Positions 30,175 through 56,288 of a stretch of DNA of 64,000 bases are shown in pieces. The notes below the pieces were generated by a model. The model did not search any database. It was not told the origin of the DNA and was given only the letters and a program-made list of their open reading frames with translations. Each line of letters opens with the position of its first letter. The first letter of the stretch is position 1. The position numbers and the translations under genes are program-made. Source of the DNA: Candidatus Saccharimonadales bacterium (GTDB lineage: Bacteria > Patescibacteriota > Saccharimonadia > Saccharimonadales > 2-12-FULL-41-12); assembly GCA_041906505.1 (NCBI GenBank), contig JAYRJB010000007.1:18964-82963 (forward strand). The letters run 5' to 3'.

Positions 30175-30350
30175 ATTATTCCGCTTGATGTATGCCGACG
30201 AACACCCGCAAAGGTTATTGCTTTATTGTAACCGAACAAAAACCCAAAGGCCATCGCCGAACCCCCAATATTACACAGTGGCATTTTCTCTCAATATCAA
30301 GGATTATTTTTTGTTGCCAGATTTGTCATATGTGGTATATTTATGGTGTT

Positions 30351-31871
30351 ATGTTGAATACCAACGAAAAGATCGGTCAACTAATTTATCAAATTAGGCA
30401 AGAACGAGGACTTACCCAAGCCGAGTTTGCGCGGCGACTTGGAACATCTCAGAGTGCAGTCAATCGGATCGAAAAGGGACGACAAAACTTGAGCCTCGAA
30501 ACCCTTGGGCGGATAAGTGACGTGCTGAACAAACAGATTATCTCTCTTGGTGGTGGCGCCGTAAACCTAAGAATTGAGGGCGGACACGAACTTTCTGGCA
30601 GCATTGAAACCAAAGTATCGAAGAACGCTGCTGTTTGCCTCTTGTTTGCGGCGCTTTTGAATAAAGGCACAACTAGGCTCAAGCGCATGCCACGAATCGA
30701 AGAAGTTAATCGCCTTATCGAAGTACTTACTAGCATCGGGGTAAAAGTCCGATGGATGGCTGGCAATGATTTGGAGATCCGACCACCAGAAAAATTAGAT
30801 CTTTCCAGCATTGACGCCCAGGCCGCCCGTAAAACCCGGAGCGTAATAATGATGTTTGGGCCGCTAATTCATCTGTTTAATGACTTCAAGATACCTTATG
30901 CGGGTGGCTGCAAGCTCGGAACCCGCACCGTACAACCCCATTTGTTTGCCCTCGAAGAGTTTGGGGTCAACATTGTTGCAAAAACCGGCTACTACCACGT
31001 AAGTGTAGAGCACAAAACGCCATCCCACGTAGTCCTCTACGAGTCTGGAGACACCACCACAGAAAATGTGTTGATGGCTACCGCGAGACACGACAAAGAA
31101 GTCACAATCAAAATGGCTAGCGCCAACTACATGGTCCAAGATCTCTGTTACTTCCTAAAGAAGCTCGGGGTTAAGATCGAAGGAATTGGTACCAGCACAC
31201 TCAAAGTGACCGGCGTAAAACACATCAAAAAGAACGTGACTTACTATCCAACCGAAGATCCGATCGAATCAATGACATTTATTGCTGCAGCGGTCACAAC
31301 AAATTCTTCGATCACCGTCAAGCGCGCCCCGCTAGACTTCGTTGAGCTTGAGCTGCTAAAACTCAAAAAAATGGGGCTAAAAGTTGATATGAGCAAGTCC
31401 TACAAAGCCGCGAATGGGCACGCAGACTTGGTCGACATCACCGTTCATAAACACAACGGCAAGCTGACCGCGCTTGACGAAAAAATTTACGCCCGCCCCT
31501 ACCCAGGCCTTAACATTGATAACTTGCCCTATTTTGTACCGATCGCCGCCGTTGCAAAGGGACGAACACTTATTCATGACTGGGTGTACGAAGAGCGTGC
31601 TATTTATTATACCGAGCTGAGAAAGCTCGGGGTCAACGTTACCCTTGCTGATCCTCATAGAGCTTTCATTGACGGACCAACTCGTTGGCGAGTCGCCGAC
31701 ATTGTGTGCCCTCCCGCACTTCGGCCGGCCGTACTCTTACTTATTGGTATGTTAGCCGCAAATGGTACTTCAATGCTGAGAAATGTCTACTCGATAAATC
31801 GTGGCTATGAATATCTTGCGGAGCGCTTAAATGATCTGGGTGCCAAAATTACCATCTTGCATGACATATAG
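30351..31871 (+). CDS. murA: XRE-HTH domain fused in-frame to UDP-N-acetylglucosamine 1-carboxyvinyltransferase
   Basis: N-terminal IGQLIYQIRQERGLTQAEFARRLGTSQSAVNRIEKGRQNLSLETLGRISDVL (Cro/C1 HTH). It runs directly, with no stop and no internal Met, into the MurA N-terminus VSKNAAVCLLFAALL. Catalytic Cys in AGGCKLGTRTV. C-terminal SINRGYEYLAERL. Confidence 0.8.
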   Translation: MLNTNEKIGQLIYQIRQERGLTQAEFARRLGTSQSAVNRIEKGRQNLSLETLGRISDVLNKQIISLGGGAVNLRIEGGHELSGSIETKVSKNAAVCLLFAALLNKGTTRLKRMPRIEEVNRLIEVLTSIGVKVRWMAGNDLEIRPPEKLDLSSIDAQAARKTRSVIMMFGPLIHLFNDFKIPYAGGCKLGTRTVQPHLFALEEFGVNIVAKTGYYHVSVEHKTPSHVVLYESGDTTTENVLMATARHDKEVTIKMASANYMVQDLCYFLKKLGVKIEGIGTSTLKVTGVKHIKKNVTYYPTEDPIESMTFIAAAVTTNSSITVKRAPLDFVELELLKLKKMGLKVDMSKSYKAANGHADLVDITVHKHNGKLTALDEKIYARPYPGLNIDNLPYFVPIAAVAKGRTLIHDWVYEERAIYYTELRKLGVNVTLADPHRAFIDGPTRWRVADIVCPPALRPAVLLLIGMLAANGTSMLRNVYSINRGYEYLAERLNDLGAKITILHDI

Positions 31872-32218: not shown

Positions 32219-33379
32219 TTAGTCTTCGTCGACGATGTTCGCCATGGTTCTGGCAGTTGCCTTCCACCACGGTTCGAAGTCACGGTAGCCTATCCAGTCC
32301 GCTGCCAGCCGCAGCGTCCACCCCAGCCACCCGTAAAACCGCAACCGACCCCAGACAACCGCAGCCCATCTTTCTCCCACAGGAATGATATACACCGGTT
32401 TTCTGTCTCTGTACGGTATTTTTGGTTGGTCATGATATTCGCGAACAAGATTGTTCGCCACACTCACGGCATCATGAAGCGCAGTTTGGGCCATTCCAGA
32501 GTAAGTCGTCTCGGCATTATCGCCAATTACATAAATATCATCACCCGCGGAGAGATACTCATCAACAACCACTTTTTTTCGAGGACTAAGTTCAAAGTCG
32601 TTGTGGTCAAAAAAGGGATTGTTGGCAATGCCGGCAGTCCAAATAACCGTTTTACTCTCGATCTTTGTATCATTCACCAACAATACATCTTTAGTTTCGC
32701 CTTGAACTGTGGCGTTTGTCATCACCTTTATGCCGAGTCGGCGAAGTCGACGCGTAATAGCCCGAGACGTCGATTTCGGTAGAGCCGGTAAAATTTGTTT
32801 CTTTGCCTCAATTAGCTCGACTTTTACCGGCTTTCTGCCAATGTAGTATTTTTTCATTAACTTATGGATGTAGTCTGGCAACACACTGGAAAACTCAATT
32901 CCCGTCGGCCCCGCGCCGACAACAATGTAGTTAAGATCGGGCGTATGAGCATTGATGAGCTGTTCTTGGAGATGAGCCTTGAGAGCCTCGGCCTTTTCAA
33001 CCGATTTCACTGAATAGCTGTTATCGGCAAGACCGTTTATTCCAAAATAATTTGTCACCGAACCCAACGACAGCACTAGCACATCGTAGGTGAGCTTTTT
33101 GCCGCCTTTTATGCTAAGTGTTTTTTGAGTCCTATCTACTTTTGTTGCCTCGCCCTTGATCATCTGTATTGGCTTGTTTGCAATCAGCTCGCCAATTGGA
33201 ATGCTCGACACCACTCTACTGCCACCTGCCGCGGTATGGTACAGCGAGGGGTAGTAATTAAATATCGTATCCGAAGCAACGAGTGTAATTAAGAAATCGT
33301 GGTGTTTTGCCAGTTCAAGGGCCGTCTTTAGTCCACCAAAGCCCCCACCGACTATCACCACCCTTGTTTGTCTTTTCAT
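32219..33379 (-). CDS. ndh: Type II NADH:quinone oxidoreductase (NDH-2)
   Basis: Two dinucleotide-binding folds: VVIVGGGFGGLKTA and YIVVGAGPTGIEFS. Confidence 0.85.
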   Translation of the reverse strand: MKRQTRVVIVGGGFGGLKTALELAKHHDFLITLVASDTIFNYYPSLYHTAAGGSRVVSSIPIGELIANKPIQMIKGEATKVDRTQKTLSIKGGKKLTYDVLVLSLGSVTNYFGINGLADNSYSVKSVEKAEALKAHLQEQLINAHTPDLNYIVVGAGPTGIEFSSVLPDYIHKLMKKYYIGRKPVKVELIEAKKQILPALPKSTSRAITRRLRRLGIKVMTNATVQGETKDVLLVNDTKIESKTVIWTAGIANNPFFDHNDFELSPRKKVVVDEYLSAGDDIYVIGDNAETTYSGMAQTALHDAVSVANNLVREYHDQPKIPYRDRKPVYIIPVGERWAAVVWGRLRFYGWLGWTLRLAADWIGYRDFEPWWKATARTMANIVDED

Positions 33380-33405
33380 AACTTCCTTGGTGTTTAGTAT
33401 ACACG

Positions 33406-35109
33406 ATGTTACAAAGCATAAGTGTAGTTTATGCTATGCTAGCTCAAGATAATATGCAGGATTTTATCCAAAAACTACAGACAACTGGCTTTAAGGGCGA
33501 TATCAAAACAGATCAAGACACGCTTGAATTTTATAGCCATGATGCATCATTGTTTGAGGTAAAGCCTAAGCTGGTGGTTGCCCCAAAGGACTCGGAAGAC
33601 GTTCAGTTGCTTACAAGGTTGGTTGCAGAGCAAAAAAATCAATCTCCAAACCTTAGCCTCACCGCCCGCAGCGGTGGCACCTGCATGTCAGGTGGATCAA
33701 TCAATGAATCAATTATTGTGGACTTTAATGCGCATATGCACGCTGTTGGGGAAGTTACCGAAAACTCGGCACGCGTACAACCCGGCATGTTTTATCGTGA
33801 CTTTGAAAAGAAAACACTCGAACACGGTGCAATTATGCCCTCTTATCCAGCAAGTCGAGAGCTCTGTACTGTTGGGGGCATGGTCGCAAATAATGCCGGC
33901 GGTGAAAAATCGCTTGAATTTGGCAAAACCGAAAAATTTGTCCAAGAACTACGGATTGTCTTGCGCGATGGAAATGAGTACATTGTAAAGCCGCTTAGTA
34001 AGGGCGAGCTGGACGTAAAAATGAGACAAGACAACTTAGAGGGGCAGCTCTATAGGGATACGTTTGATTTGGTAGAAAAGAATTATGAGTCACTGCAACG
34101 CGCCCGCCCGAGGGTTTCTAAGGATTCGACTGGGTATCACTTATGGAATGTCTGGGATCCAAAAAAAGAAATATTTGATCTCACGCAAGTCATTGTTGGT
34201 TCTCAAGGGACCTTGGGGCTGGTGACTGATATCAAATTTCGATTGGTAAAAAACCCGGCTCATTCTGGCACATTAGTTTTGTTCTTGCGCGATTTGCGCG
34301 ATCTTGGCGAGCTGATTAACGATGTCATGACGCATAAGCCTGCAACTTTCGAAGGCTTCGACAACTATACGCTAATGTTGAGCTTTAAGCTGTTCTTCTA
34401 TTTCAGAAAAACTCTCGGTTGGATTGGGATGATGAAATTAGGCATTCAGCTTATACCAGACGCTCTCAAGTTATTTAGGGGCATACCGAAGATGGTATTG
34501 CTTGTGCAGTTTACAGGTAACACGCCACAAGATGTCGCAGACAAAGTTCATGCCTTACGGCGCTCGCTCACAAAATACGACCACGAAACGCTGTTTGAAG
34601 AAGACGAAACCGAAATAAAGGAAAAGAAGTTCTGGATCATGCGTCACGAAAGTTTTAATTTGCTGCGTAAAAAAGTAAAAGATAAGCACACCGCGCCTTA
34701 TATCGATGACTTAGTTGTAAATCCAGAACACTTACCAAACTTTTTGCCCGAACTGCGAGCCATAATAAATAAGTATGGGCTTTTGGCAACAATTGCGGGG
34801 CATATGGGCGATGGCAATTTTCATGTGATACCGCTCATGAAGCTCGAGAATAAAGATGAGCGGGCAAAATTGCGCCCATCAATGAAAGAAGTGAACGAAT
34901 TAGTGCTTAAATACGGCGGATCGCTGTCGGGCGAACATAATGATGGTATGAGTAGAGGACCTTGGCTTGAGCAAATGTACGGCCCAGAAATACTAGAGCT
35001 CTTCAAAAAAACTAAACATATTTTTGATCCCGACAATCTTTTTAACCCCCACAAAAAGACTGACGCAGACTGGGATTATTCATTCTCGCATATTCGCGAC
35101 CACTTCTGA
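33406..35109 (+). CDS. FAD-linked oxidase (GlcD/D-lactate dehydrogenase-like, FAD_binding_4 plus C-terminal domain)
   Basis: SGGTCMSGGS FAD-binding motif and HMGDGNFH in the C-terminal domain. Start uncertain (Met 33406 vs 33436). Confidence 0.7.
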   Translation: MLQSISVVYAMLAQDNMQDFIQKLQTTGFKGDIKTDQDTLEFYSHDASLFEVKPKLVVAPKDSEDVQLLTRLVAEQKNQSPNLSLTARSGGTCMSGGSINESIIVDFNAHMHAVGEVTENSARVQPGMFYRDFEKKTLEHGAIMPSYPASRELCTVGGMVANNAGGEKSLEFGKTEKFVQELRIVLRDGNEYIVKPLSKGELDVKMRQDNLEGQLYRDTFDLVEKNYESLQRARPRVSKDSTGYHLWNVWDPKKEIFDLTQVIVGSQGTLGLVTDIKFRLVKNPAHSGTLVLFLRDLRDLGELINDVMTHKPATFEGFDNYTLMLSFKLFFYFRKTLGWIGMMKLGIQLIPDALKLFRGIPKMVLLVQFTGNTPQDVADKVHALRRSLTKYDHETLFEEDETEIKEKKFWIMRHESFNLLRKKVKDKHTAPYIDDLVVNPEHLPNFLPELRAIINKYGLLATIAGHMGDGNFHVIPLMKLENKDERAKLRPSMKEVNELVLKYGGSLSGEHNDGMSRGPWLEQMYGPEILELFKKTKHIFDPDNLFNPHKKTDADWDYSFSHIRDHF

Positions 35110-35116
35110 TCTACTA

Positions 35117-35389
35117 CTATGAATGGTCAAAGTTCTTGGCTTCAGCTTTTGCTGAAAGCCTTCTGCTAGCCATACCAACCCCAAAAGAAACCACGGTTAA
35201 ATATAGCAGTCCACTCATGCATGTTTTCAAAAGAGGAGCACCTGTAGCAATAACCAAGGCAGTTCCGCTGGCAAGCGTCCCGGCGATAAATGCGTATGCC
35301 CCGTATAATTTTGCCGTTGATGGACTAAAGTAAAGATAGGTAGTCCAAACTAGGCTGAGTAGGGCAATGGATATGTGTAGTAATAACAT
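35117..35389 (-). CDS. Possible small membrane protein (90 aa) downstream of the heme O synthase gene
   Basis: Three hydrophobic helices. No motif. Confidence 0.3.
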   Translation of the reverse strand: MLLLHISIALLSLVWTTYLYFSPSTAKLYGAYAFIAGTLASGTALVIATGAPLLKTCMSGLLYLTVVSFGVGMASRRLSAKAEAKNFDHS

Positions 35390-35421
35390 AAGCTAGATAA
35401 AGTATATACGTTTCGACTGGA

Positions 35422-36276
35422 CTATGGAAGAAGGCTATCCAAAGATATCATCATGGAAAACCCAAGCAAAACTATGAGAGAGACACCAAACATTTTTCGT
35501 GCCCATTTTGTGTCGTTTGTTGTGTGAAATTGTTTTGCGCCAACGTAAAACCATATGAGGCCTAGTCCACAGACCACGAACAAGTACGTGTACCCCGTAT
35601 AGTCAAACAGGGTAAGAAGTGAGGCCGCCCCTATAAATGCCGCGACATAATAAAGTATCTGTCGCTTAGTGGCACGCACACCTTTTACCAGCGGCAACAC
35701 CGGAATGTTTGCGTCAGAATAATCCTTGCGTCGAAAAATTGATATTGAATAAAAATGTGGCATTTGCCAACAAACTAAAATAACAAAAAGCAGTACTGCC
35801 CCAAAATCCAGTGTTGAGGTTACCGCCGTATACCCCGCCACCGGTGGGACAGCCCCCGATACGCTACCCACGAGTGTGCCAAACCGGGTCCTTCGCTTGA
35901 AAATGCTATAGACAACAACGTAGGCAAACCAACCGACTGCACCAACGAGCACTGTAGTGAAGTTGGTGAACGCTATGAGTGTTGCCATACCCAAAACACC
36001 AAGTACTGTTCCGAAAACCAGTGCACTTCTTTTGGATATTTCACCACTCACCAACGCTCTTTTTTGCGTTCTTTTCATTTTGGCGTCTATTTCTTGGTCG
36101 AGATAATTATTAAACACGCACCCAGAAGCCATAACCAACGCCGAACCAATAACTGTTTGTAGCAACAACCAGCCGTCGACCGTTCCCTTGGAAGCGAGCA
36201 AAAATCCGCCAATCACGGTAAGTAAGTTGCCTCGAATAATCCCAGGCTTTGTAAGCCGGTAATATTTATTGATCAA
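35422..36276 (-). CDS. cyoE: Protoheme IX farnesyltransferase (heme O synthase)
   Basis: UbiA-fold NNYLDQEIDAKMKRT...RALVSG motifs. 284 aa. Overlaps cyoD by 4 nt. Confidence 0.85.
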   Translation of the reverse strand: MINKYYRLTKPGIIRGNLLTVIGGFLLASKGTVDGWLLLQTVIGSALVMASGCVFNNYLDQEIDAKMKRTQKRALVSGEISKRSALVFGTVLGVLGMATLIAFTNFTTVLVGAVGWFAYVVVYSIFKRRTRFGTLVGSVSGAVPPVAGYTAVTSTLDFGAVLLFVILVCWQMPHFYSISIFRRKDYSDANIPVLPLVKGVRATKRQILYYVAAFIGAASLLTLFDYTGYTYLFVVCGLGLIWFYVGAKQFHTTNDTKWARKMFGVSLIVLLGFSMMISLDSLLP

Positions 36277-36668
36277 CGAGGATTGATTCCTTCGTCTTCG
36301 ATTATGTACGAGTCTGTCGGCTGCTCAATATGCGGGTGCCTATAGTCAAGATTGTCCATAATCCAAAGCGTGCCAGCCACCAGTACGGTTACCACCATCA
36401 CCATAAAGTACAGGGCAATAGTATTCCATCTCGGCTTTGATTCCCGGCCTAGATGAAGAAAGAAAACCACCTGAACGATAAATTGTATCATTGCCAAGAA
36501 GAGCACAACGTACATAATCGTCCGGTGCGAGGGAGAGTTATGCTGGGAGTTAATATGGGCGACGACGAGACTATACGCGATTAACGTCAACGCAATTGAA
36601 AGCACAAAACCAATCACATACGAAAACAAGCTTTGACGATCTTGCGAGGAAAGTTGCTGTTTTGCCAT
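36273..36668 (-). CDS. cyoD: Quinol oxidase subunit IV
   Basis: 131-aa three-TM protein in the canonical position between subunit III and heme O synthase. Confidence 0.65.
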   Translation of the reverse strand: MAKQQLSSQDRQSLFSYVIGFVLSIALTLIAYSLVVAHINSQHNSPSHRTIMYVVLFLAMIQFIVQVVFFLHLGRESKPRWNTIALYFMVMVVTVLVAGTLWIMDNLDYRHPHIEQPTDSYIIEDEGINPR

Positions 36669-36672
36669 ACGA

Positions 36673-37272
36673 CTACCCCGCTGCCCCTATTAAATACACG
36701 ACTGAAAAAATAAAGATCCAGATTATGTCCAAAAAGTGCCAGAACAAACTCAGCAAAATAAGTCTCTTTGTGATAGTGCTGGTTATTCCTTTTTGTATAA
36801 TGCTAACAGAGAGGACTGCCATCCAAGTCAGCCCAACGGCAATATGAAGCCCGTGGGTTCCAACAAGCGTGAAATATGATGATAAGAATGCACTGCGAGT
36901 CCAGCTATTTCCTTCCTCTACAAGATGACGGAACTCGGCGATCTCCATACCAAGAAAGGCAAGACCAAGCAAAAAAGTGACACCCAGCCAGAAAAGAACT
37001 TGGTTTTTTTGACGACGATGAAGCGCCCACATTGCAAGCCCAGCCGTAAAGCTACTCGTAAGCAGTAGTAGGGTTTCTACAAGCACATACGGCAACTCAA
37101 AGATCTCCTCTCCAGTGGGGCCACCAAAGGTGTTATTGTGGAGAACAGCATAGGTTGCAAACAAGCTCGCAAACACCACACAGTCGGTCATTAAGTATAC
37201 CCAAAAACCAAGCACCGTCTTTGAGTCGTCACTATGCGGCGATAGGGCTTGGCTCGGCAACGCTTTGCTCAT
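36673..37272 (-). CDS. cyoC: Quinol oxidase subunit III
   Basis: COX3-family motifs: [18 protein letters not shown]. Confidence 0.8.
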
Positions 37273-39257
37273 AGCTTTACTGCCCTCCTTGCCCTTTTTT
37301 GCTCAATTTTCTTTATGTCGGCTGCCGGTATCACGTACTCGGTATTTTCATCGTTTGAACGAATAATAAAGCTCACAATAACGCCGAGAAGCGATAATGC
37401 GGCAAGCCAAGGAATATGCCAAATTGCTGCAAACCCAAACAAAAAGGCAAAGCTAGCAATTATTATTCCAAAGCCAGTGTTCTTTGGCAGCGCAATATCT
37501 TGGTATGTTTGGTTTGCTGGCGAGTGTGCATGAGCCTTTTTAGCAACCCAAAATGCATCTCTTTCATGAACTACTGGCAAGTGTGCAAAGTTGTAGACTG
37601 GCGCGGGGGATGACGTCGACCACTCAAGAGTTCGGCCATCCCAGGGATCGCCGGTTGTGTCTCGGTTGTTATTCCGATCCTTTATACTCACGACAAATTG
37701 CAAAATCTGCATAACCACACCCAAACCAATAATTAGCGCACCGACCCCGGCAACAATAAATAATGACTGCCAACCCATTGATGCGTCATAGTGATCAAGC
37801 CGCCTGGTTGCCCCCATAAATCCAAGTGCATATAGTGGCAAAAACGCGGTTGCAAAACCAATGATCCAGCACCAAAACGCATACCGACCAAGTCTTTCGT
37901 TAAGCTTAAATCCAAAAACTTTCGGAAACCAGTAAGAAATGCCGGCAAAGTACCCAAACACCACACCGCCAATAACCATGTTATGAAAATGAGCAACTAA
38001 AAACAGACTGTTATGAAGCTGGAAATCTGCGGGTGGCACCGACATCATTACCCCCGTAACTCCGCCAATAGTAAATGTAACCACAAAACCCATAAACCAT
38101 AGCATTGGGGTGTTAAACCTAATTCTGCCCCGATACATTGTAAACAACCAGTTAAATACTTTTACCCCAGTAGGTATGGCAATCACCATGGTCATAATTC
38201 CAAAGAAGGCATTTACGTTTGCGCCAGCGCCCATGGTAAAGAAGTGGTGCAACCATACCACATACGACAAAATAGCTATTGCTCCAATTGCCCATACCAT
38301 CGACTTATAGCCAAAAAGTCGCTTTCCAGAAAACGTAGCAACGACCTCTGAAAAAATACCAAATGCTGGGAGAATTAGAATATATACTTCTGGATGGCCC
38401 CACGCCCAGATTAGATTGACATACATCATCGGGTTGCCACCAAAGTCTGAAGTAAAAAAGTGCATACCAAATGTTCTATCAAGCGCCAAGAGGGCTAACG
38501 ACACCGTTAAGATTGGAAAGGCAAAAATAACAAGCGACATGCTCCCGAGTACGCTCCAACAAAACACGGGCATCTTCATGAGCGACATCCCCTTGGTGCG
38601 CATTTTTAGAATCGTCACTAAGAAGTTGACCCCCGAGAGCAAGCTGCCTATTCCAGCGATCTGCACGCTCCAGATCCAATAGTCAACGCCTGGGCCAGGA
38701 CTATAGGCCAACCCCGAAAGTGGTGGATACGCCAGCCAGCCGGTAGCTGCAAATTCGCCACCTACCGCCAGTGAAATATTTATCAACACCGCCCCCGCCA
38801 CATAGAGCCAAAAGCTGACGGAATTCAAAAATGGAAACGCAACATCCCGTGCGCCAATCTGAAGCGGGACTATGAGATTAATCAGTCCGAACATAAGCCC
38901 CATGGCCACAAAAAATATCATTATGGTCCCATGTGCGGTAAACACCTGCTGAAAAGTGTCAGATGAAATGATTCCACTCGAGTCTCCCACCGAAGTTGCT
39001 TGCTGGATTCTCATCATCAGAGCATCAGCTGCACCGCGAAGCAACATCGCAATCGCAACAATAATATACATAACACCTATGCGTTTTGGGTCAAGCGACG
39101 TAAGCCACTCCTTCCAGAGCCACTTCCATTTTCTGAAATACGTAAGCGCTGCTGCTGCTCCAAGCACCGTCGCTACCATGGAAACTGTCGCTCCAACCAA
39201 CAGTTTGTCATCTAGAGGAAAAACGCTGGAGGCGGCGAAGAGCTGCAAAAAATTCAT
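37269..39257 (-). CDS. cyoB: Heme-copper quinol oxidase subunit I
   Basis: [17 protein letters not shown], and HHMF-like GHHFFTMG with His ligands. 662 aa. Confidence 0.9.
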
Positions 39258-40177
39258 CTCATCATCTCCGAATAGTGCGTTTTTCGTTCGTCATTCGGAC
39301 TATCAAGAAACGAGGGGGGTGATAAGAATTTCATTACTACTTGGTCATACAAGCCCGACTCGCTCGAAGCAAAATACATTTGTGGCACGTTCTTGCTTGG
39401 GGTCGACAATTCTTTGTACATATCTTTGTCTAAAACATTACCCAATTCCCTCACCGAGCCAACCCACTGGTCGAAATCATCTTGTGGCACCGATTCGGCA
39501 ACAAACTTCATTCCAGAAAATCCCTCGCCGCTAATATTTGCTGACGAGCCGGCAAAAGAGCCAGTTTCTGATGCCCGGAGACTCAAGCGAGTTGACATAC
39601 CGCTCATCGCATATATCTGTCCACTCAACTGAGGAATCCAGAAAGAATTCATCGGCGCATCAGCAGTTATTTCAAAATCTATCGGCCTATCTTTTGGAAT
39701 TTGCACATAATTAACCGTTGCAATATTTTCTTCTGGATAGATGAAAAGCCATTTCCACTGCAGCGCTACAACCTGCACCTTCATTGCTGCCTTATCAGAC
39801 TCGAGGGGCTTAAAAGGATCCAGGTTGTGCGTACTATTCCATGTAACAATCGACAAAATAAATATTAGCAGGATTGGCACACCCCACCACACCGCTTCCA
39901 ATGTTCGATTTCCGTCCCACTCGGGGGTGTATCGTGCGGTGTGGTTCGACGCCCGAAACTTCCAGATAATATAAAAGAACAAGGTAAATACTGGAATAAC
40001 TACTACCAATGAAAGGCCGGCCGCAAATAAAATTAGGTTGCGCTCTTTTTCGGCAATTTCTCCGCGCGTCTCTAGCAATGGAATGCTGTGTTTCTGAGAA
40101 AGAAACACTATTAGACCCACCAAACAGACAACGTAAAGCAGTGCGACTCCAACTCCAAAAAACTTTCTCATACACAC
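39254..40177 (-). CDS. cyoA: Quinol oxidase subunit II (no CuA cysteine ligands)
   Basis: Two N-terminal TM helices plus a cupredoxin-like domain lacking the CxxxC CuA motif. This argues for a quinol oxidase rather than a cytochrome c oxidase. Confidence 0.8.
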
Positions 40178-40336: not shown

Positions 40337-40414
40337 TGGCGGGTGTAGCTCAGTTGGTTAGAGCGCCGGGTTGTGGTTCCGGAGGCCGTGGGTTCAATTC
40401 CCATCACTCGCCCC
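40337..40414 (+). tRNA. tRNA-His (anticodon GUG) with genomically encoded G-1
   Basis: G(-1) followed by GCGGGTG. Anticodon stem CCGGG/TCCGG with loop TTGTGGT. T-arm GTGGG-TTCAATT-CCCAT. CACTCGC-C-CCA (G-1 pairs with C73). Confidence 0.85.
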
Positions 40415-40442
40415 AAGGTCAATTTTTTAAGGATTGGCTTTT

Positions 40443-41090
40443 TTAGTTTGGAAGCCCACTCAACAAAACAAGCACTGCCAGCGGGATGGTTATATTGTCT
40501 GTTCCGTACCAGGAAATGTTTTCTAATAACGTCAGCGCAACCGGCGCAAAGCCGAGCAACCAAAACGAAGATGGTAAGTTAAGTGGTTCGACAAACAGTA
40601 GAAGCGACAGCATTATCGAAAAAGAAACAAGATAAAAACTAAGCGAGCCAATTAGAGACTTCCCATGACTCAATATTTTGTAGTGCGACGATTTGCCCCA
40701 TCTTAATCCAACATACGCCGCGGCGGAATCGGCAACCGCAAGGTGAAGAATTGCGGCCGTGAACATCCATGCCGGTGGCTCAATGAACGCACACACCGCA
40801 ATCGCAACTGGATATAATATCTCCCCCCTCGTTATGCGCTTTACACTGTGAATTGATTGAAAAACATGAAGCTTATATGACAGTACTATTACCGCTAGAA
40901 AAGCTATGCTCAGAAGTTGAATATACGTCCAGTTAATAAACAAGGGCCAAAATGCAACATAGACACCTGTTGTTGTGTGAATAATTTTTCGGCTGGTCTC
41001 TACTTGAAGTTTTTTTGCCTCCCACAATCGATCCACCACAACCAGCAATATCCATATTGGCAAAATTGCCAGCAAAAGTTGCACTATCAT
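40443..41090 (-). CDS. CTP-dependent polyprenol/dolichol-kinase-like membrane protein (CTP_transf_1 superfamily, non-CdsA)
   Basis: SRKIIHTTTG N-terminal motif and C-terminal VADSAAAYVGLRWGKSSHYKILSHGKSLIGSLSF match the VTE5/DolK pattern (RKxxH; DxxAxxxGxxxG...KSxEGS). The CdsA PGHGG..DR motif is absent. Confidence 0.5.
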   Translation of the reverse strand: MIVQLLLAILPIWILLVVVDRLWEAKKLQVETSRKIIHTTTGVYVAFWPLFINWTYIQLLSIAFLAVIVLSYKLHVFQSIHSVKRITRGEILYPVAIAVCAFIEPPAWMFTAAILHLAVADSAAAYVGLRWGKSSHYKILSHGKSLIGSLSFYLVSFSIMLSLLLFVEPLNLPSSFWLLGFAPVALTLLENISWYGTDNITIPLAVLVLLSGLPN

Positions 41091-41875
41091 AATGGTTTCT
41101 TTTGAGGCAGCGGAACAAAAACGCTCGTTTTTCTTTTGTAGGCTTGATAACTGGGATCATTCTGGTATCTTTTTTCGAGCATTGGCACACCAGACACAAA
41201 TAGAATGAGACAGGTGATCGTCAGCGGCCCAATGATTGACCACCATACTGGATTAATACTCATGCTTAGAATCCAAACTCCCCACCAAAGTAGCACCTCG
41301 CCAAAATAATTTGGGTGTCTCGAATACTTCCACAATCCTTGATCCATCACTTGATTAGCTTTTTTACGAGTCTTCAGAAAATTCCGAAGTTGTCGGTCGG
41401 CAAATATCTCAATGATAAATCCGCTCAGCCAGGTCGCAAACCCAAGCGTAAGCCACAAATCAGAATTGAATACAGTAGGGCTTGTCGCGACTGCAATAAT
41501 TGGAAGTGACACGAGCAGCAACAAAAATCCTTGCAGCATAAACACTTTCAAAAATGCGTTTAGCGCAATCGAACCTTTCCACTTTTTTCTTAACTCAACA
41601 TATCTCTTGTCTTCTTTTTTTGACCAATTTCGCTTAAAGATATGATAGCTAAGCCGAAGACCCCATGTTGTCACCATTGCAGTCACAAGTACCTGCGCAT
41701 AGTAACTTTCTCCCCAATTCGCAAATAGCTGGGACCATGCAACTACTATAAATCCTCCGCCCCAAGCAATGTCGGCGAGATCAAACTTTTTTCTGGAGAG
41801 CGCAACGACAAACCAGAAGCAAAAGTAGATAAGTGTTGCCAATAAGGCAATCAAAAAATAATCTCTTTCGCTCAT
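41087..41875 (-). CDS. DUF1295 / steroid-5-alpha-reductase-superfamily membrane protein (putative NADPH-dependent reductase)
   Basis: C-terminal WKYSRHPNYFGEVLLWWGVW is the signature of the DUF1295/SRD5A/ICMT clan. 4-nt overlaps with both neighbouring genes. Confidence 0.6.
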   Translation of the reverse strand: MSERDYFLIALLATLIYFCFWFVVALSRKKFDLADIAWGGGFIVVAWSQLFANWGESYYAQVLVTAMVTTWGLRLSYHIFKRNWSKKEDKRYVELRKKWKGSIALNAFLKVFMLQGFLLLLVSLPIIAVATSPTVFNSDLWLTLGFATWLSGFIIEIFADRQLRNFLKTRKKANQVMDQGLWKYSRHPNYFGEVLLWWGVWILSMSINPVWWSIIGPLTITCLILFVSGVPMLEKRYQNDPSYQAYKRKTSVFVPLPQKKPL

Positions 41876-42246
41876 TCACCTATCACCATTTTGGTTACTG
41901 ACGCGGTTATGGCGGCAATGGTCACCCCCCACGCCATATCGACAATGGTTACAGTCTTTGGCCACTTTTCGAGGGTCGCTTGGTTCGTAAGGTCATAGGT
42001 CGCATATGTCACGAGGCCAAAAAACGCACCCATGATTAGGGCCTCTCCCGTGGTTTCGGCCGGCCGAATGACAAACACCACGAGACCTGCGAGAAAAATT
42101 ACATAAAACAGAACAGCAGCAACCCAGTTGGGCTTTTTAGCCATGATGAAACCAAGTTGTTTTTTGTAAAACTTTCGGGCAACAGCGCCAAGCCAAACTG
42201 CATCTAATGCACTAAAGACCAGCGCTGCAACAAGAAATTCGCTCAT
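41872..42246 (-). CDS. DUF2177-like small membrane protein
   Basis: 124-aa four-TM ORF translationally coupled within the operon. Confidence 0.4.
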   Translation of the reverse strand: MSEFLVAALVFSALDAVWLGAVARKFYKKQLGFIMAKKPNWVAAVLFYVIFLAGLVVFVIRPAETTGEALIMGAFFGLVTYATYDLTNQATLEKWPKTVTIVDMAWGVTIAAITASVTKMVIGE

Positions 42247-42899
42247 TCTTTTCTATCTCCTACAATGCTACTCTTTATGGCTACAAATGGTCTAATGAAC
42301 AGTTTTTCTGTAATGTTCGCGGCATTGTTAAGGAAATTGTAGCCCACCGCTGCCAACAAAATACCAAATGCAAGATTTGTACTAATAAAGCTAAGTGGTA
42401 TTGCAACTACTGCACAAACCATCGGGGTGAGAGTTCGTATTAGCGCGCCCTTTCTTTGCTCGGCGGTTCGTTCAATATGCTCAATGCTGTCGGCCTTTTC
42501 GACATATTCCCTCATGATCAATAGCGTAAGTCCGATACAAAACACATTCACCGCGTAGATAATTATTGCAAGCGGAGTATCATTGTATACGCCTAACATA
42601 TGGGTAGTAAACGGAACAACACCCACCAAAAAAAGAAATATCCCATTTAAGTTTAAAAGATTGATGTCAATATTTTTTGCCATGATTGTGATTACAAAAT
42701 TGTGTGCCCGCCAGTACACAAACAAGACAGCGAAACTAATGAAATAGCTCAAAAACAATGTCCATTCGTGGCGCAAGTAATCCCAAAGTGCATGATTAGT
42801 TGGTGTCGATAAAACCGGAAATTTTAGTTCTAAAACCAAAAGCGTCATAACGATCGCAAAAATTCCATCCGTCAGCGCGTGCAATCTATCGTGTTTCAC
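42243..42899 (-). CDS. TMEM175/DUF1211-family putative potassium channel
   Basis: RLHALTDGIFAIVMTLLVLEL matches the DUF1211 RxxxFSDGVFAIAITLLVLE helix-1 signature. Six TM. Confidence 0.7.
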   Translation of the reverse strand: MKHDRLHALTDGIFAIVMTLLVLELKFPVLSTPTNHALWDYLRHEWTLFLSYFISFAVLFVYWRAHNFVITIMAKNIDINLLNLNGIFLFLVGVVPFTTHMLGVYNDTPLAIIIYAVNVFCIGLTLLIMREYVEKADSIEHIERTAEQRKGALIRTLTPMVCAVVAIPLSFISTNLAFGILLAAVGYNFLNNAANITEKLFIRPFVAIKSSIVGDRKE

Positions 42900-42918
42900 T
42901 ATTGCTATGCATTATACC

Positions 42919-43902
42919 CTATGTGCGGGGCATTATTGTCGAAGATTCACCAGCACGAAATGATATTTTTAGCGCCGAATGATCCGTGACAAACCTCGAT
43001 AAAACCTGGGTCTTGTCTGCACCCAATTTTTCTTTTTCGGTGTACCCGCAATGATCAATTGGAAAATCTTTGCCGGTTGAGGTTGGTTTGGTGTTATAAC
43101 CAGTAATATAGCCAATGCGATTAAGTGCTGGTGCAATCTCTTCTGGGGAGGCGTTTGCATCCAAGCACACAATGGTGGGCCTTCCCTCTTCGGTGTCATC
43201 GCCAATGAACTCTACGAGCTCATCAAACTGTGCTCGTTTTACTGATGAGTTTCCTGATGGATGGCTAGTTATGATTCTAAGGTCTTTGTCCTCGGTTCCG
43301 TCGTAGTATTTTATTGTTAGGGCAACCGTGCTGCGGTTTGCTTGAATACCGCGTTTTGCTCTGTCGAAGTCAGTATCCGCATGGGCGATGTCCCCCGCTA
43401 GCCCGGTTACAAAACCGTACGCACTCTCGACAAGCGACGTTCCATCAATACGCGTTGAAGTAACAGACCTCGGTTTTTGCTGCGTGAGTATTGCATTTCC
43501 AAGACCACCCACAAGCAATCCGTCTTTTATGTCAGAATTTACGTAGGATATGTACCAGTTCGGAAGTGCCGCGTGTATGTCATCAACGTCGTCGGCTGCT
43601 ACTTCTTGCAGGGCAATGGCGTCGGGTTGATTTTGATCTATCATCTCTTTTAGATCTTCTGTTCTGCTTGCAGTTTCGTTGTGCATATTCCAGGTAATTA
43701 CATCAATATTTTGATCAATGGTTATGTGGTGCTGTTTATTGGGTTCGATTACTACTTTTTCCCCAGAATGTATTTGTTTATATTGCCAAGCGGCTCCTGT
43801 TATTACGCTGGCTGTTACTGCCAAGGCTCCGATTCTTTTTGCCACAGCGCTACGATTCCACCGAGACTCTTGGGCTGGTAGCAATTCTTTATTTTGCTCC
43901 AT
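42919..43902 (-). CDS. Endonuclease/exonuclease/phosphatase (EEP)-family protein with N-terminal membrane anchor/signal
   Basis: DVITWNMH...PDAIALQEV catalytic N-terminal motifs of the EEP fold. Hydrophobic N-terminus. Confidence 0.65.
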   Translation of the reverse strand: MEQNKELLPAQESRWNRSAVAKRIGALAVTASVITGAAWQYKQIHSGEKVVIEPNKQHHITIDQNIDVITWNMHNETASRTEDLKEMIDQNQPDAIALQEVAADDVDDIHAALPNWYISYVNSDIKDGLLVGGLGNAILTQQKPRSVTSTRIDGTSLVESAYGFVTGLAGDIAHADTDFDRAKRGIQANRSTVALTIKYYDGTEDKDLRIITSHPSGNSSVKRAQFDELVEFIGDDTEEGRPTIVCLDANASPEEIAPALNRIGYITGYNTKPTSTGKDFPIDHCGYTEKEKLGADKTQVLSRFVTDHSALKISFRAGESSTIMPRT

Positions 43903-43940
43903 TTTGTACTGATACTATCCACGCTTACAGCACATTAGTC

Positions 43941-43966
43941 AATAAAAAAGGCCCCTCAGCGGAGCC
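43941..43966 (-). terminator. Rho-independent terminator after tRNA-Pro
   Basis: Minus strand: GGCTCC-GCTGA-GGGGCC followed by TTTTTTATT. Confidence 0.6.
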
Positions 43967-52487: not shown

Positions 52488-52596
52488 ACGCACCTCCAAT
52501 GTGAGAATATTATTAGGCTATGCGGCTAGTATAGCACTCGGTTCTCATATATTTACGCTTGTGCTTATTTGATTTACACTACTAAACTAAGTGGTT

Positions 52597-53181
52597 ATGA
52601 AAAAATTAGAACTTCTCGGCAAAAAAGGTTTTACGCTCATAGAATTACTGATGATAATTACCCTTATTGGCATACTCTCGGGCATTACCTACTCTGTCGC
52701 AGTGCCTAGATGGCGAGAGCGAACCTATTATACCCGCAGCGTTGCTGAGATGTCGTCAATTGCAAACGGCATGAAGTTGTACGTTGCAAAATACAACGAC
52801 TTCCCTCCAGACGCCAGTCGTAATCTCCCGTCTGGTATTCAAGAATTTGTGCAGGGCCAAGAAGCAAAAGATGACTGGCCCTCAGCGCCGTTTCCAGGCA
52901 GTGTGTATGACTGGGATAATTGGCCACCAGACGGTAATGGTCCTTTGCAAACTTACCAAATAAGCATCCGCTTTTGTGGCGTTGGCGATGACGCAACGTG
53001 CAAGAAAATGGCCAAGAAATATCTGGCAGGCAGAACATCCGACACAATACTCAACAGCTGGGATAGCTACAGCGCCATGTATTACTGCGTAAAAGGTTCT
53101 TGTCGTTCACATCAGAGCAAGCCCATAAACCACCCCGGTTTTTGCATCAATTGCGGATCTAGTCAGTCACAGATCTACTAG
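52597..53181 (+). CDS. Type IV pilin-like protein (prepilin with class III signal peptide, Cys-rich C-terminal domain)
   Basis: MKKLELLGKKG|FTLIELLMIITLIGILSG prepilin cleavage/methylation motif. Eight cysteines in the C-terminal half. Confidence 0.8.
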   Translation: MKKLELLGKKGFTLIELLMIITLIGILSGITYSVAVPRWRERTYYTRSVAEMSSIANGMKLYVAKYNDFPPDASRNLPSGIQEFVQGQEAKDDWPSAPFPGSVYDWDNWPPDGNGPLQTYQISIRFCGVGDDATCKKMAKKYLAGRTSDTILNSWDSYSAMYYCVKGSCRSHQSKPINHPGFCINCGSSQSQIY

Positions 53182-53247
53182 CAGGCGCTAAGAAGTCACA
53201 GCACTCGACATCACGCTTGTGTTTTTCATGTATACTACATAATAACT

Positions 53248-55065
53248 ATGCGTATTTCAGATGGCCTGGTGGAGCAATTACTTCGAGATGCAAATAAAGT
53301 CGATGAAGCACAGCTAACGTCCCTCCGAGAGCAAGAAAAAACCGAAAAAAAGCCGCTTCAAGATATCGTTATCAAGAACAATTTGATAAGCGAAAAAGAT
53401 TTGACCAAGCTGTATTCGAAGGAAATTGACGTTCCTTATATTGAGCTCAACGCCAAAGAACTAAAAAGGGAAATTTTGCGATTAGTTCCAGAGCGAATTG
53501 CAAAACAGTACAAAGTGGTCCTATTTGGGGTTGAAGATGATGGCTCAAAATTGTTGGCCATGGAAGACCCCGATGACATTCAAGCACTTAATTTTCTACA
53601 AAAGCAGCTGGGGTCCAAAATTAAAGTACACGTTGCGACGAGCTCAAATATTTCTCAAGCACTCGATCAATATCGAGAAAATGTCAGCAGTGAACTCACG
53701 AAGGTTCTTAGTCCAGAAGAGAGCGAAAATGAGGGAGACGATGAAGACATTAGCGAAGAGGATCTGGCCGAAGACTCACCAATTGCCCAAACCGTAAATC
53801 TAATAATTGAATATGCCGTTCGCGCGGGAGCAAGTGACATTCACATCGAACCCAGAGATGACTACATTGTTGTTCGGTATCGGATTGACGGCATTCTTAA
53901 AGAGGCCAATAAATTACCAAAGAAAGTTCATGGGGCACTCGTAAGTCGCATAAAGATTCTTAGTAATTTAAAGATTGATGAGCGTCGTTCACCCCAAGAT
54001 GGTCGCTTTAAGATTCAGATTGGTAGCGGAATCTATGCGCTGCGCGTCTCTACGCTCCCGATAACTGACGGCGAAAAAGTAGTAATGCGTATCTTAAGCG
54101 AATCGAGCAAAGCCGCCACGCTCGATGAACTTGGATTTTGGGGGTCAGCACTAAACACAATCAACGATGCGATTATACAGCCGCACGGCATGATTTTGGT
54201 CACAGGACCAACAGGATCTGGGAAATCAACTACACTTTTTAGCATTCTAAGCTTACTCAACAAACCGAGTGTAAATATTTCAACAATCGAAGATCCGGTT
54301 GAATACAAAATCCCTGGCGCAAATCAGACACAAGTAAACCCCAAGGCCAACATGACTTTTGCAGCCGGTCTGCGCGCCCTGCTGAGACAAGATCCTAACA
54401 TCATTATGGTTGGCGAGATTAGGGACGGCGAGACGTCCGCACTTGGGGTTCAAGCAGCGCTCACAGGTCACCTTGTATTTGCAACTCTCCACACCAATAA
54501 TGCTGCGACTTGTCTGCCGCGCTTACTCGATATGGGTATTGAGCCATTTTTGATTGCTAGCACAGTTCGCGCGGTGGTTGGTCAAAGATTAGTCCGCAGA
54601 CTATGTGTCGATTGCCGAGAGCCCCATGCTCCAGATGAAGCAACCTTAAAACAAATTGCAAAAATTTTTCACACTGATGATGCGAAGTATATGAAGTTTA
54701 TTCATGGACTCGAAAAAGAGGCGCTGGATGCAGGAATTGGTAAGTCAAACACCAGCAAAGTAAACAAAAACTCGCCCGAAGCACTCGGAACCAGTGACGC
54801 AAAAATATTAAAAATCTGGAAGGCCAAAGACAAGGGCTGCGAATCTTGTAACCACACCGGCTATAAAGGGCGAATTGGCATCTACGAAGTTCTTGGCAAT
54901 TCCGAAAAGGTTCAACATCTTATAGTAGCCAATTCAACCAGTGATGAGATACAATCACAAGCAATAACCGACGGGATGCTTACCATGCAGCTTGACGGAT
55001 TTATTAAAGCCCTTCGCGGACAAACAAGCATTGAAGAAATTCTTCGCGTCACATCAGAGAGTTAG
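53248..55065 (+). CDS. pilB: Type IV pilus assembly ATPase PilB (GspE family)
   Basis: Walker A LVTGPTGSGKSTT, Asp/His boxes, tetracysteine motif CVDC...CESC. Confidence 0.9.
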   Translation: MRISDGLVEQLLRDANKVDEAQLTSLREQEKTEKKPLQDIVIKNNLISEKDLTKLYSKEIDVPYIELNAKELKREILRLVPERIAKQYKVVLFGVEDDGSKLLAMEDPDDIQALNFLQKQLGSKIKVHVATSSNISQALDQYRENVSSELTKVLSPEESENEGDDEDISEEDLAEDSPIAQTVNLIIEYAVRAGASDIHIEPRDDYIVVRYRIDGILKEANKLPKKVHGALVSRIKILSNLKIDERRSPQDGRFKIQIGSGIYALRVSTLPITDGEKVVMRILSESSKAATLDELGFWGSALNTINDAIIQPHGMILVTGPTGSGKSTTLFSILSLLNKPSVNISTIEDPVEYKIPGANQTQVNPKANMTFAAGLRALLRQDPNIIMVGEIRDGETSALGVQAALTGHLVFATLHTNNAATCLPRLLDMGIEPFLIASTVRAVVGQRLVRRLCVDCREPHAPDEATLKQIAKIFHTDDAKYMKFIHGLEKEALDAGIGKSNTSKVNKNSPEALGTSDAKILKIWKAKDKGCESCNHTGYKGRIGIYEVLGNSEKVQHLIVANSTSDEIQSQAITDGMLTMQLDGFIKALRGQTSIEEILRVTSES

Positions 55066-55073
55066 AAAAACAC

Positions 55074-56288
55074 ATGGCACAATTTAGCTTTACTGCTACA
55101 AAAAACGGAAAAAAGTTTAATGGCACCCTCGAGGCAACCAGCAAGGATGCGGTACTAGAAGCGCTCCACAAACAAGGAATGCAGCCTTTAGTTGTAAAGC
55201 TTACGAGTGCAAAAAATGACGGAAAACATCGCCGGGGAAGAGTAAAGCAAAAAGATCTCGTTGTATTTACGCGCCAGCTTTCGACAATGATATCCGCTGG
55301 TGTGCCGCTCACGCGGTCAATGACCACCCTACAACAACAAGCCGACAACAAATATTTTAAAGAGGTTATCAGCGGGGTGACGAAAGACATCGAGGGCGGA
55401 GTTTCTTTGGCTGATTCGCTTGCGAAATACCCAAGAGTATTCAGTGATGTATATGTCAACATGGTGCGAGCAGGAGAGGCTGGCGGTATACTCGACGAAA
55501 TCTTGAAACGACTTGCAGAACAAGTAGAAAAAGATGCAACTATTCGAAAAAAAATAAAAAGCGCCTCAGCTTATCCAACAGTAATTTTTGGAGTAACCAT
55601 TATTGCTTTTTTTGGAATTATGATTGTTGTAATTCCCAAACTCGGAAAAATCATCAAAGACTTGGGTGGGCCGGACGCAAAGCTTCCTGTATATACCCAG
55701 GCGATGCTTAATTTGAGCAATTTTATGCAAAAAAATGCCATCTTTCTCATTATCGGAGCAGTGGTGACGGTCGTTCTTGTCCGTCGCTACATACGAACAC
55801 CAAACGGAAAATATAAGTTTCATGCGCTTTTACTACGAACCCCCATCATAAAGACCATTATTACGAAGATCGCGATCGCTCGGTTTGCGCGAACGTTTGC
55901 TTCGCTTATGTCGGCTGGGGTTGGTGTGCTTGATGCCTTGGAAGTAACGGGAGGTGCCATTGGCAACAAAGTTATAGAAGCAGAATTAAAAGACGCTGCC
56001 AAGCAAGTCAAAAACGGAAAACAACTTTCTGAGCCGTTGTCGAAAAGTGCCCACTTCCCACCTATTATTGCCCAGATGTTGGCAATTGGCGAAGAAACTG
56101 GCCAAATAGACACCATACTCGTGAAAGTCGCAGACTTTTACGAAGAAGAGGTAGATGCGGTCATCGACGGAGTAAGTGCGCTCATTGAGCCGTTAATGAT
56201 TATTGTGCTTGGCAGTATTGTTGGACTGATTGCTGCAAGCGTTATGGGACCAATCGCAAGCTTGAGCCAGAATGTGAGTGGCGGTTAA
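55074..56288 (+). CDS. pilC: Type IV pilus platform protein PilC (GspF family)
   Basis: Two T2SSF repeats, three TM segments. 404 aa. Confidence 0.85.
   Translation: MAQFSFTATKNGKKFNGTLEATSKDAVLEALHKQGMQPLVVKLTSAKNDGKHRRGRVKQKDLVVFTRQLSTMISAGVPLTRSMTTLQQQADNKYFKEVISGVTKDIEGGVSLADSLAKYPRVFSDVYVNMVRAGEAGGILDEILKRLAEQVEKDATIRKKIKSASAYPTVIFGVTIIAFFGIMIVVIPKLGKIIKDLGGPDAKLPVYTQAMLNLSNFMQKNAIFLIIGAVVTVVLVRRYIRTPNGKYKFHALLLRTPIIKTIITKIAIARFARTFASLMSAGVGVLDALEVTGGAIGNKVIEAELKDAAKQVKNGKQLSEPLSKSAHFPPIIAQMLAIGEETGQIDTILVKVADFYEEEVDAVIDGVSALIEPLMIIVLGSIVGLIAASVMGPIASLSQNVSGG

Follow-up and report, generated by a model that had tools for sequence, protein, structure and literature searches.

The window analysed here is a 64,000-nt stretch of contig JAYRJB010000007.1 (positions 18,964 to 82,963) from a Candidatus Saccharimonadales bacterium, and it carries at 40443-42899 four overlapping minus-strand membrane-protein genes, one of which encodes a putative lipid-alcohol kinase and its neighbour a DUF1295 protein. 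An initial annotation had joined these two proteins into a possible pathway for an alpha-saturated polyprenyl-phosphate carrier lipid. Our analysis points, with about an even chance of being right, to co-transcribed membrane-protein genes derived from three separate pieces, with DUF1295 inserted once beside the kinase, and not to one dedicated pathway. As the first piece, the kinase-like protein (g1) would carry out the CTP-dependent phosphorylation of a membrane isoprenoid alcohol, either undecaprenol or some other polyprenol, or perhaps a shorter prenol, so that carrier lipid would be recycled or salvaged by an organism that is probably unable to make isopentenyl diphosphate (IPP); re-phosphorylation of free polyprenol, or of shorter prenols, for example for CyoE, would be useful to the bacterium that carries it. 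The one statement found in the literature on isoprenoid synthesis in Saccharibacteria is genome-based: a complete soil genome is reported to lack an IPP pathway, to keep NDH-2 and cytochrome bo3 and, apparently, to scavenge quinones and lipids (PMC6031116). As the second piece, a small membrane partner (g3) and an SRD5A-clan enzyme (g2) would act together, most likely in the NAD(P)H-dependent saturation of a C=C bond in a membrane lipid. The third, a TMEM175-type cation channel (g4), would have been added in this species only.

The open reading frame (ORF) list gave the four genes as follows:

40443-41090, minus strand: g1, kinase-like protein of 215 aa, ATG start
41087-41875, minus strand: g2, DUF1295 protein of 262 aa, ATG start
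41872-42246, minus strand: g3, DUF2177 protein of 124 aa, ATG start
42243-42899, minus strand: g4, TMEM175-family protein of 218 aa, GTG start

Both the coordinates and the 4-nt overlaps of the initial annotation were exact, and each of the three g4/g3/g2/g1 junctions is an ATGA.

The gene neighbourhoods of the kinase and of DUF1295 were then compared using 72 genome loci from a kinase-centred search, contigs L073, L074 and L155-L160 from look-ups of Saccharibacteria-like DUF1295 proteins, and a background control of 80 metagenomic DUF1295 loci, all non-Saccharibacteria. Each of the 16 Saccharibacteria loci retrieved carried the kinase, and in only three of them did DUF1295 adjoin it, namely L002, L003 and L001, the last being an uncultured Saccharibacteria metagenome-assembled genome that is 97% identical to and fully syntenic with the window. 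Neither DUF1295 nor DUF2177 was found in any of 54 non-Saccharibacteria kinase loci (L017 and L019-L071, mostly cyanobacteria), and no kinase was found in the 63 unrelated DUF1295 loci with room for one. The usual place of the kinase in Saccharibacteria was between RNase Y/YmdB and murA-glyA-murB. The looked-up contigs, in which EEP denotes an endonuclease/exonuclease/phosphatase-family gene, showed these arrangements:

L073: EEP-DUF1295-kinase
L074: VKOR-DUF1295-kinase
L156: DUF2177-DUF1295-kinase
L157/158: VKOR-DUF1295-kinase
L159/160: VKOR-DUF1295-kinase
L155: DUF2177-DUF1295, without the kinase

Upstream of the linked pair the genes varied (VKOR, EEP, DUF2177 or YmdB). The distance from the DUF1295 stop to the kinase start, determined in eight Saccharibacteria lineages, was -4 nt five times, -1 nt twice, +4 nt once and +7 nt once. 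This junction survived down to ~45% identity of the DUF1295 protein and ~52% identity of the kinase, and through at least four upstream contexts, including one that took it out of the RNase Y region. In neighbour-joining trees, the kinase-linked DUF1295 proteins formed one clade, sister to the L155 protein, and the linked kinases fell into one Saccharibacteria subclade, with the unlinked kinases of L007 and L010 nested within it. Several further cases of the two genes occurring together are suggested solely by contigs of identical length among the kinase and DUF1295 matches. These patterns suggest that the kinase is ancestral in Saccharibacteria, usually without DUF1295, and that DUF1295 was probably inserted immediately upstream of it once, in one subclade, where the tight junction has since withstood rearrangements of the flanks, with at least two losses of the linkage. 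The expectation that the gene pair would be conserved in relatives thus held for this one Saccharibacteria subclade and no wider. As for a four-gene operon, g2-g1 stayed tight in relatives, but DUF2177 was linked in just two lineages of the kinase-linked clade, most members of which have lost it at the locus, and among 160 loci the window and L001, which belong to the same species, were alone in having TMEM175 at the cluster. The four-gene arrangement is species-specific, and this restricted linkage places g4 probably outside any conserved lipid function.

Around these loci, four lineages (L002, L074 and L157-L160) have VKOR directly upstream of the DUF1295-kinase pair, and in L004 and L007 it is a few kb off. 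In deeper Saccharibacteria the gene just before the kinase encodes a ClpB/ClpC-like AAA+ protein of ~800 aa (L012 5596-8004, L014 5557-7950, L013 4209-6653). The possibility that DUF1295 is replaced upstream of the kinase by another lipid enzyme was considered and rejected, as the site holds unrelated genes for ClpB-like, LMWPc/NUDIX, AI-2E transporter, AIR-synthase-like and secreted 478-aa proteins.

Whether the adjacency of g2 and g1 carries any functional meaning depends on how much weight their junction can bear. The overlaps taken by the initial annotation as translational coupling are real, yet 4-nt overlaps occur in 11 of the 47 same-strand adjacent ORF pairs in the window, so that the triple overlap from g4 to g1 marks an operon and is nothing exceptional; moreover, a 4-nt overlap also joins the ClpB/ClpC-like gene to the kinase in L012 and L014, which makes translational coupling weak evidence for a g2-g1 link. 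Together with the single origin of the linkage and its later loss in L007 and L010, these observations are what would be expected if the pair were inherited synteny in a compact genome with routine overlaps, without functional meaning. We consider this unlikely, because the junction has outlasted both the sequence divergence and the changes of upstream context described above. Since the DUF1295-kinase junction has been kept tight since the insertion, g1 and g2 may share a lipid pool, a link that is suggestive only.

The first of the three pieces, g1, carries the motifs SRKIIH, ADSAAAYVG and GKSLIGSLSF, as the initial annotation had noted (RKxxH, D-S-A-A-x-x-G and GKSLIGSLSF). In an alignment of 23 homologues, E31, R34, K35, H38, G89, D121, A124, G148, E190, G196, D198 and P203 (g1 numbering) were invariant, and G128 and K144 were conserved in at least 90%. 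The invariant residues include the RKxxH basic clamp in transmembrane helix (TM) 2 (R34, K35 and H38, plus E31) and E190, G196, D198 and P203 of the C-terminal E...G-x-D-N-x-x-x-P motif, whose sequence is ENISWYGTDNITIPL. The nucleotide site of the family usually reads D-x-x-A-x-x-x-G ... (K/R)-(S/T)-x-E-G-(S/T), a stretch to which D121, A124, G128, K144 and G148 belong. A profile search of 1.8 billion representative proteins returned 8,981 relatives, which makes the g1 family a large one. Homologues of g1 came almost all from Candidatus Saccharimonadales, and the closest relatives outside the Candidate Phyla Radiation (CPR) were cyanobacterial proteins of 27-35% identity named SEC59/DGK1/VTE5 family or phytol kinase. 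JGI names for the relatives were 'phytol kinase' and 'dolichol kinase', NCBI names were 'diacylglycerol/polyprenol kinase family protein' and 'SEC59/DGK1/VTE5 family protein', and older database records read 'phosphatidate cytidylyltransferase'. No significant Pfam match was obtained for g1 (CTP_transf_1 E=0.18, 12 bits against a cut-off of 24), and NCBIfam gave no match. Its AF2 model (pLDDT 90.3) has eight long helices, consistent with ~8 TM, and the sole sensible fold match in the PDB was TmCdsA, which was not significant (E=0.37, TM-score 0.36).

Assignment of g1 to CdsA itself was rejected. The GHGG / DR motif is absent from the 215-aa protein, CTP_transf_1 stayed below the Pfam threshold, and no PDB sequence match was obtained even with a 23-sequence profile. 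The likeness to TmCdsA and CdsA (PF01148) thus amounts to distant superfamily kinship, g1 being shorter and lacking the S-x-x-K-R...P-G-H-G-G-x-x-D-R signature. On its motifs and the names of its relatives, g1 is a member of the SEC59/DGK1/VTE5 kinase family and not a CdsA, and it is predicted to be CTP-dependent; the DolK/VTE5 placement of the initial annotation therefore stands on those two grounds, while no curated hidden Markov model threshold was reached. Four relatives of 448-479 aa (P0345, P0346, P0353 and P0367) combine an N-terminal kinase domain with an extra C-terminal half of ~230 aa without a Pfam match, which might be a fusion partner hinting at the substrate. A further relative that appeared to join a CdsA fragment to the kinase was discarded as probably a gene-call artefact or a neighbouring cdsA, and not an informative fusion.

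Among characterised proteins, g1 resembles the prenol salvage kinases VTE5 (phytol), FOLK (farnesol) and PfPolK, with which it shares the R-K-x-x-H clamp, the ~8-TM model and the D-x-x-A-x-x-x-G and G-x-DN-x-x-x-P motifs. PfPolK, which phosphorylates farnesol and geranylgeraniol in a CTP-dependent manner, has a 'charged clamp' of Arg29, Lys30 and His33 at the CTP pocket and has been modelled with eight TM helices. The cyanobacterial relatives are only ~30% identical to g1, and the substrate must differ, as the bacterium has no chlorophyll or tocopherol metabolism.

The family names also admit a yeast Dgk1-type enzyme, in which g1 would convert host diacylglycerol (DAG) into phosphatidate with CTP, g2 and g3 would remodel acyl chains and the EEP protein would be a possible lipid phosphodiesterase, all within phospholipid scavenging. 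Saccharibacteria lack fatty-acid synthesis and scavenge lipids (PMC6031116), the neighbours of DUF1295 elsewhere include fatty-acyl-modifying enzymes and DegV fatty-acid-binding proteins, and EEP genes turn up in several of the neighbourhoods (just before DUF1295-kinase in L073, and further upstream, by a few kb, in L074, L157 and L014). However, no observation discriminates between DAG and prenol as the substrate of g1, the EEP protein is at least as similar to nucleases as to lipases (its sole match among PDB sequences was a weak one to ExoIII, E=0.09), and a DAGK_cat-type lipid kinase is already encoded at kinase locus L006 and another at the kinase-less DUF1295 locus L155. We regard this reading as unlikely.

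The second piece, the DUF2177-DUF1295 module, was found to keep other company outside Saccharibacteria. The membrane protein g3 matched DUF2177 (PF09945) over its full length (145 bits against a cut-off of 26.9, E=1.3e-42), the family that the initial annotation had proposed. DUF2177 occurred in 30 of the 80 unrelated DUF1295 loci; of the 55 with enough flank, 18 had it directly upstream; and in L117 (5965-7167) a single 401-aa ORF fuses DUF1295 (23-253) to DUF2177 (267-388), which is Rosetta-stone evidence that the two work together. The constant partner of DUF1295 is DUF2177, not the kinase. Recurrent neighbours in the 80 background loci were CMAS with DUF1365 (10), DegV (8), an amine-oxidase-type flavoprotein (5), MFS_2 (5), a pyrimidine-dimer glycosylase (Pyr_excise; 4), and TspO, DUF2878, DUF1722 and chalcone-isomerase-like genes (3 each). 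DUF1365 is UfaO, an enzyme of furan fatty acid synthesis during the response of Rhodobacter to singlet oxygen, in which its partners are a CFA-synthase-like methylase and a flavoprotein desaturase (PMC7380195); the DUF2177 and DUF1295 genes of Chlamydomonas are singlet-oxygen-induced and SAK1-dependent (PMC4067076); and DUF2177, DegV and DUF1295 are reported as characteristic of heliorhodopsin genomes, including those of Patescibacteria (10.1101/2021.02.16.431466). The window itself encodes a heliorhodopsin of 254 aa (PF18761, E=3e-98) at 19239-20003 on the minus strand. Taken together, the recurrent neighbours, the published stress links and this heliorhodopsin set g3-g2 in a context of light or oxidative stress and acyl-lipid modification, not of polyprenol metabolism. 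With its canonical order and 4-nt overlap, g3-g2 resembles the heliorhodopsin/DegV-linked module; it differs in lying ~20 kb from the heliorhodopsin gene, in not being beside DegV or CFA-synthase-type genes and in being uniquely followed by a prenol-kinase-family gene.

The presence of a heliorhodopsin gene ~20 kb from DUF2177-DUF1295 fits the published genome-level co-occurrence. The neighbours of the heliorhodopsin gene are a TreT-like glycosyltransferase (20072-21799), VKOR (18298-18885, plus strand), which in the window thus lies here instead of upstream of the pair, DUF1761 (17765-18184) and DUF308 (16763-17326).

The enzymatic nature of g2 was approached by family scores and fold comparison. 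The protein carries the WKYSRHPNYFGE signature and matched Pfam DUF1295 (PF06966) with 231.2 bits against a cut-off of 20.4 (E=1.5e-68; protein residues 21-250, model positions 1-235 of 235), in agreement with its earlier placement in the DUF1295/SRD5A/ICMT clan. Secondary matches were obtained to Steroid_dh (43 bits, residues 140-255 only), PEMT (27 bits) and ICMT (25.8 bits), the last two barely over their cut-offs and far under DUF1295 and Steroid_dh. The AF2 model (pLDDT 93.5) was compared with the PDB by Foldseek, which ranked 4quv (delta14-sterol reductase, probability 1.0) first, followed by 7c83 (PbSRD5A, TM-score ~0.6), 7bw1 (SRD5A2) and then ICMT. The sequence match to SRD5A2 covered the C-terminal cofactor half only (E=0.0015); the N-terminal half, where E57 and Y91 of SRD5A2 sit, shares the fold but does not align by sequence. 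Relatives of g2 number in the thousands at 45-50% identity across bacteria. By these scores and predicted folds, g2 belongs to the SRD5A / sterol-reductase / ICMT clan, appears nearer to the NADPH-dependent reductases than to the methyltransferases and is probably an NAD(P)H-dependent membrane C=C reductase. A PEMT/ICMT-type methyltransferase is less likely, given the order of the Pfam scores and of the folds, and UsgR, a related 'PEMT-like' fungal enzyme, is an ene-reductase (PMC8597850). Identification of g2 as an SRD5A3/Dfg10 orthologue (PF02544) was rejected, the Steroid_dh match being secondary and partial and the catalytic-side half being without sequence alignment.

These properties bear directly on the proposal that g2 saturates the alpha-isoprene unit of polyprenol or polyprenal and that g1 phosphorylates the product to give an alpha-saturated polyprenyl-phosphate carrier. 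The two superfamilies are those of the eukaryotic dolichol route (SRD5A3/Dfg10 followed by DOLK/Sec59), both enzymes are polytopic membrane proteins as in that route, and a reduce-then-phosphorylate logic is conceivable; the tight junction in eight lineages, the ancestral place of the kinase beside murA/murB, which fits a carrier-lipid role, and the probable scavenging of isoprenoids by Saccharibacteria (PMC6031116) all agree with it. The chemistry is less accommodating. The initial annotation had treated SRD5A3 as a polyprenol reductase, whereas SRD5A3 reduces polyprenal, not polyprenol, in a three-step detour with DHRSX acting before and after (PMC11250103). No DHRSX-like dehydrogenase or other short-chain dehydrogenase/reductase (SDR) is encoded in the g4-g1 cluster, so a direct polyprenol-to-dolichol step by g2 is chemically unlikely; likewise, SRD5A2 catalysis polarises a carbonyl through E57/Y91 (PMC7591894), which makes an allylic alcohol unlikely as the direct substrate of g2. 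Further differences are that g2 belongs to DUF1295 and not to the PF02544 SRD5A3 orthogroup, that the eukaryotic route needs DHRSX/Env9-type dehydrogenases (PMC11250103) and has its genes unclustered, and that most of the kinases here have no such reductase beside them and most of the reductases no kinase, their linkage having a single origin and the context of DUF1295 elsewhere being fatty-acid modification and light stress. Of the proposed pathway, therefore, the superfamily match stood, the pathway as a whole was only weakly supported, and we consider it improbable. None of the three observations that the initial annotation had named as refuting (grouping of g1 with CdsA, grouping of g2 with phospholipid methyltransferases, and a gene pair not kept as neighbours in relatives) overturned it outright. 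The more specific version, in which the pair turns polyprenol or polyprenal scavenged from a host into a dolichol-like polyprenyl phosphate in one IPP-less Saccharibacteria subclade, appears very improbable.

Shorter prenols offer another joint role, in which g2 and g1 would act on scavenged farnesol/farnesal, geranylgeraniol, phytol/phytenal or retinoids, as salvage or detoxification in a light-exposed epibiont, and the prenyl phosphates would feed, for example, heme O, quinone handling or carrier-lipid synthesis. Farnesol, geranylgeraniol and phytol are phosphorylated, with CTP as donor, by relatives of g1 that have been characterised, enzymes of the SRD5A clan can reduce alpha,beta-unsaturated carbonyls (enals, for instance), and VKOR, directly upstream of the pair in four lineages, is quinone-using. 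The window also encodes cyoE (heme O synthase), which needs farnesyl diphosphate, along with cyoABCD and NDH-2, and its heliorhodopsin needs exogenous retinal. Against this, the argument is purely associative, and only in this species do the cyo genes lie next to the kinase; no second, diphosphate-making kinase was seen in the cluster, and the single origin of the g2-g1 linkage applies here too. We consider such a role quite unlikely.

Several points weigh against separate pieces brought together without a dedicated pathway. Locus retrieval was pattern-based, and the counts given above are samples, not censuses; the neighbour-joining trees carry no bootstrap support values. A junction of -4 to +7 nt that lasted through upstream rearrangements argues for something beyond accidental adjacency, and to call the locus a composite may understate a functional link. 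With regard to g1, the Glu of K-S-x-E-G gives way to I, L, V or A within the clade from Saccharibacteria (KSLIG), a difference from the prenol salvage kinases, whereas its cyanobacterial and Chloroflexi-like relatives keep it (KSWEGS). The protein falls below every curated family threshold, its family call coming from motifs and relatives' names; none of eight distant relatives passed a Pfam or NCBIfam model either, including cyanobacterial ones that NCBI names SEC59/DGK1/VTE5, which indicates that these collections simply hold no model for the g1 branch. Finally, its candidate substrates span polyprenol, short prenol, phytol and diacylglycerol.

The third piece, g4, matched TMEM175 (PF06736) with 73 bits against a cut-off of 25 (E=2.3e-20), in line with the earlier call, and matched CmTMEM175 (PDB 5vre; E=1.1e-15, residues 4-187) and human TMEM175 (E=7.5e-12). 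Like the bacterial TMEM175 K+ channels, it has a single 6-TM repeat of ~200 aa and the TM1 pattern R-x-x-x-(F/L)-(S/T)-D-G-x-F-A-I; its own TM1 signature is RLHALTDGIFAIVMTLLVLE, with F->L and S->T relative to R-x-x-x-F-S-D-G-x-F-A-I, giving LTD in place of FSD. By these matches g4 is a putative single-repeat TMEM175-family cation channel homologue.

The boundaries of the transcription unit were outlined by the following features:

42919-43902, minus strand: EEP-family gene with an N-terminal membrane anchor (Pfam Exo_endo_phos E=1.3e-12)
43942-43914, minus strand: promoter-like site upstream of the EEP gene, from a consensus scan alone
43966-43950, minus strand: terminator-like hairpin after tRNA-Pro, from a consensus scan alone; with the promoter-like site it spans the region 43914-43966
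40339-40415, plus strand: convergent tRNA-His (GTG anticodon), the 3' boundary of the cluster, identified by ARAGORN and Rfam

The EEP gene ends 19 nt before the start of g4 on the same strand and is probably the first gene of the unit; with the promoter- and terminator-like sites beyond it, the predicted transcription unit probably comprises five genes, EEP-g4-g3-g2-g1. The 19-nt EEP/g4 spacer (within 42880-42920, minus strand) contains TATAAT ~10 nt before the g4 GTG and lacks an obvious Shine-Dalgarno sequence, which could reflect either an internal promoter for a near-leaderless g4 transcript or chance. The Rfam scan of the window returned tRNAs and nothing else.

On its other side, the kinase is separated from murA by an aerobic respiratory island at 32219-40177, consisting of cyoA-B-C-D-E (35422-40177), an FAD-linked oxidase (33406-35109) and an NDH-2-like flavoprotein (32219-33379). 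Elsewhere in Saccharibacteria (L003, L007, L014 and L015) the kinase stands directly beside murA-glyA-murB, so the island looks like a lineage-specific insertion. Peptidoglycan genes are also present in the window. At 30192-31871 (plus strand) the longest ORF joins an XRE-type helix-turn-helix (62-115) to a full EPSP_synthase/MurA-type domain (129-546), which is either an unusual fusion or an over-extended start; homologues occupy the same place in several Saccharibacteria loci. A long same-strand gene run at 52591-62759 (plus strand) encodes several short proteins with prepilin-like N-termini (GFTLIELL, GFTIVELL, GFSVVELL) and one large 605-aa protein; by its ORF translations alone it resembles a type IV pilus cluster of the sort typically found in epibiotic CPR bacteria.

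Two of the families concerned, DUF1295 and DUF2177, comprise large numbers of membrane proteins without known function and extend from bacteria to algae and plants, and SEC59/DGK1/VTE5 kinases have hardly been studied in bacteria. Should g1 and g2 prove unrelated, the locus would be an ordinary operon of a compact genome; should the dolichol-like conversion be true, it would give bacteria their first dolichol-type carrier-lipid route and DUF1295 its first function. The lasting, tight DUF1295-kinase pair provides a testable hypothesis of lipid-alcohol salvage or modification, possibly supplying carrier lipid for the cell wall, in bacteria that must scavenge lipids, quinones and isoprenoids from their hosts. 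The substrate of DUF1295 would annotate thousands of genes, and that of the kinase would clarify how CPR epibionts obtain undecaprenyl phosphate.

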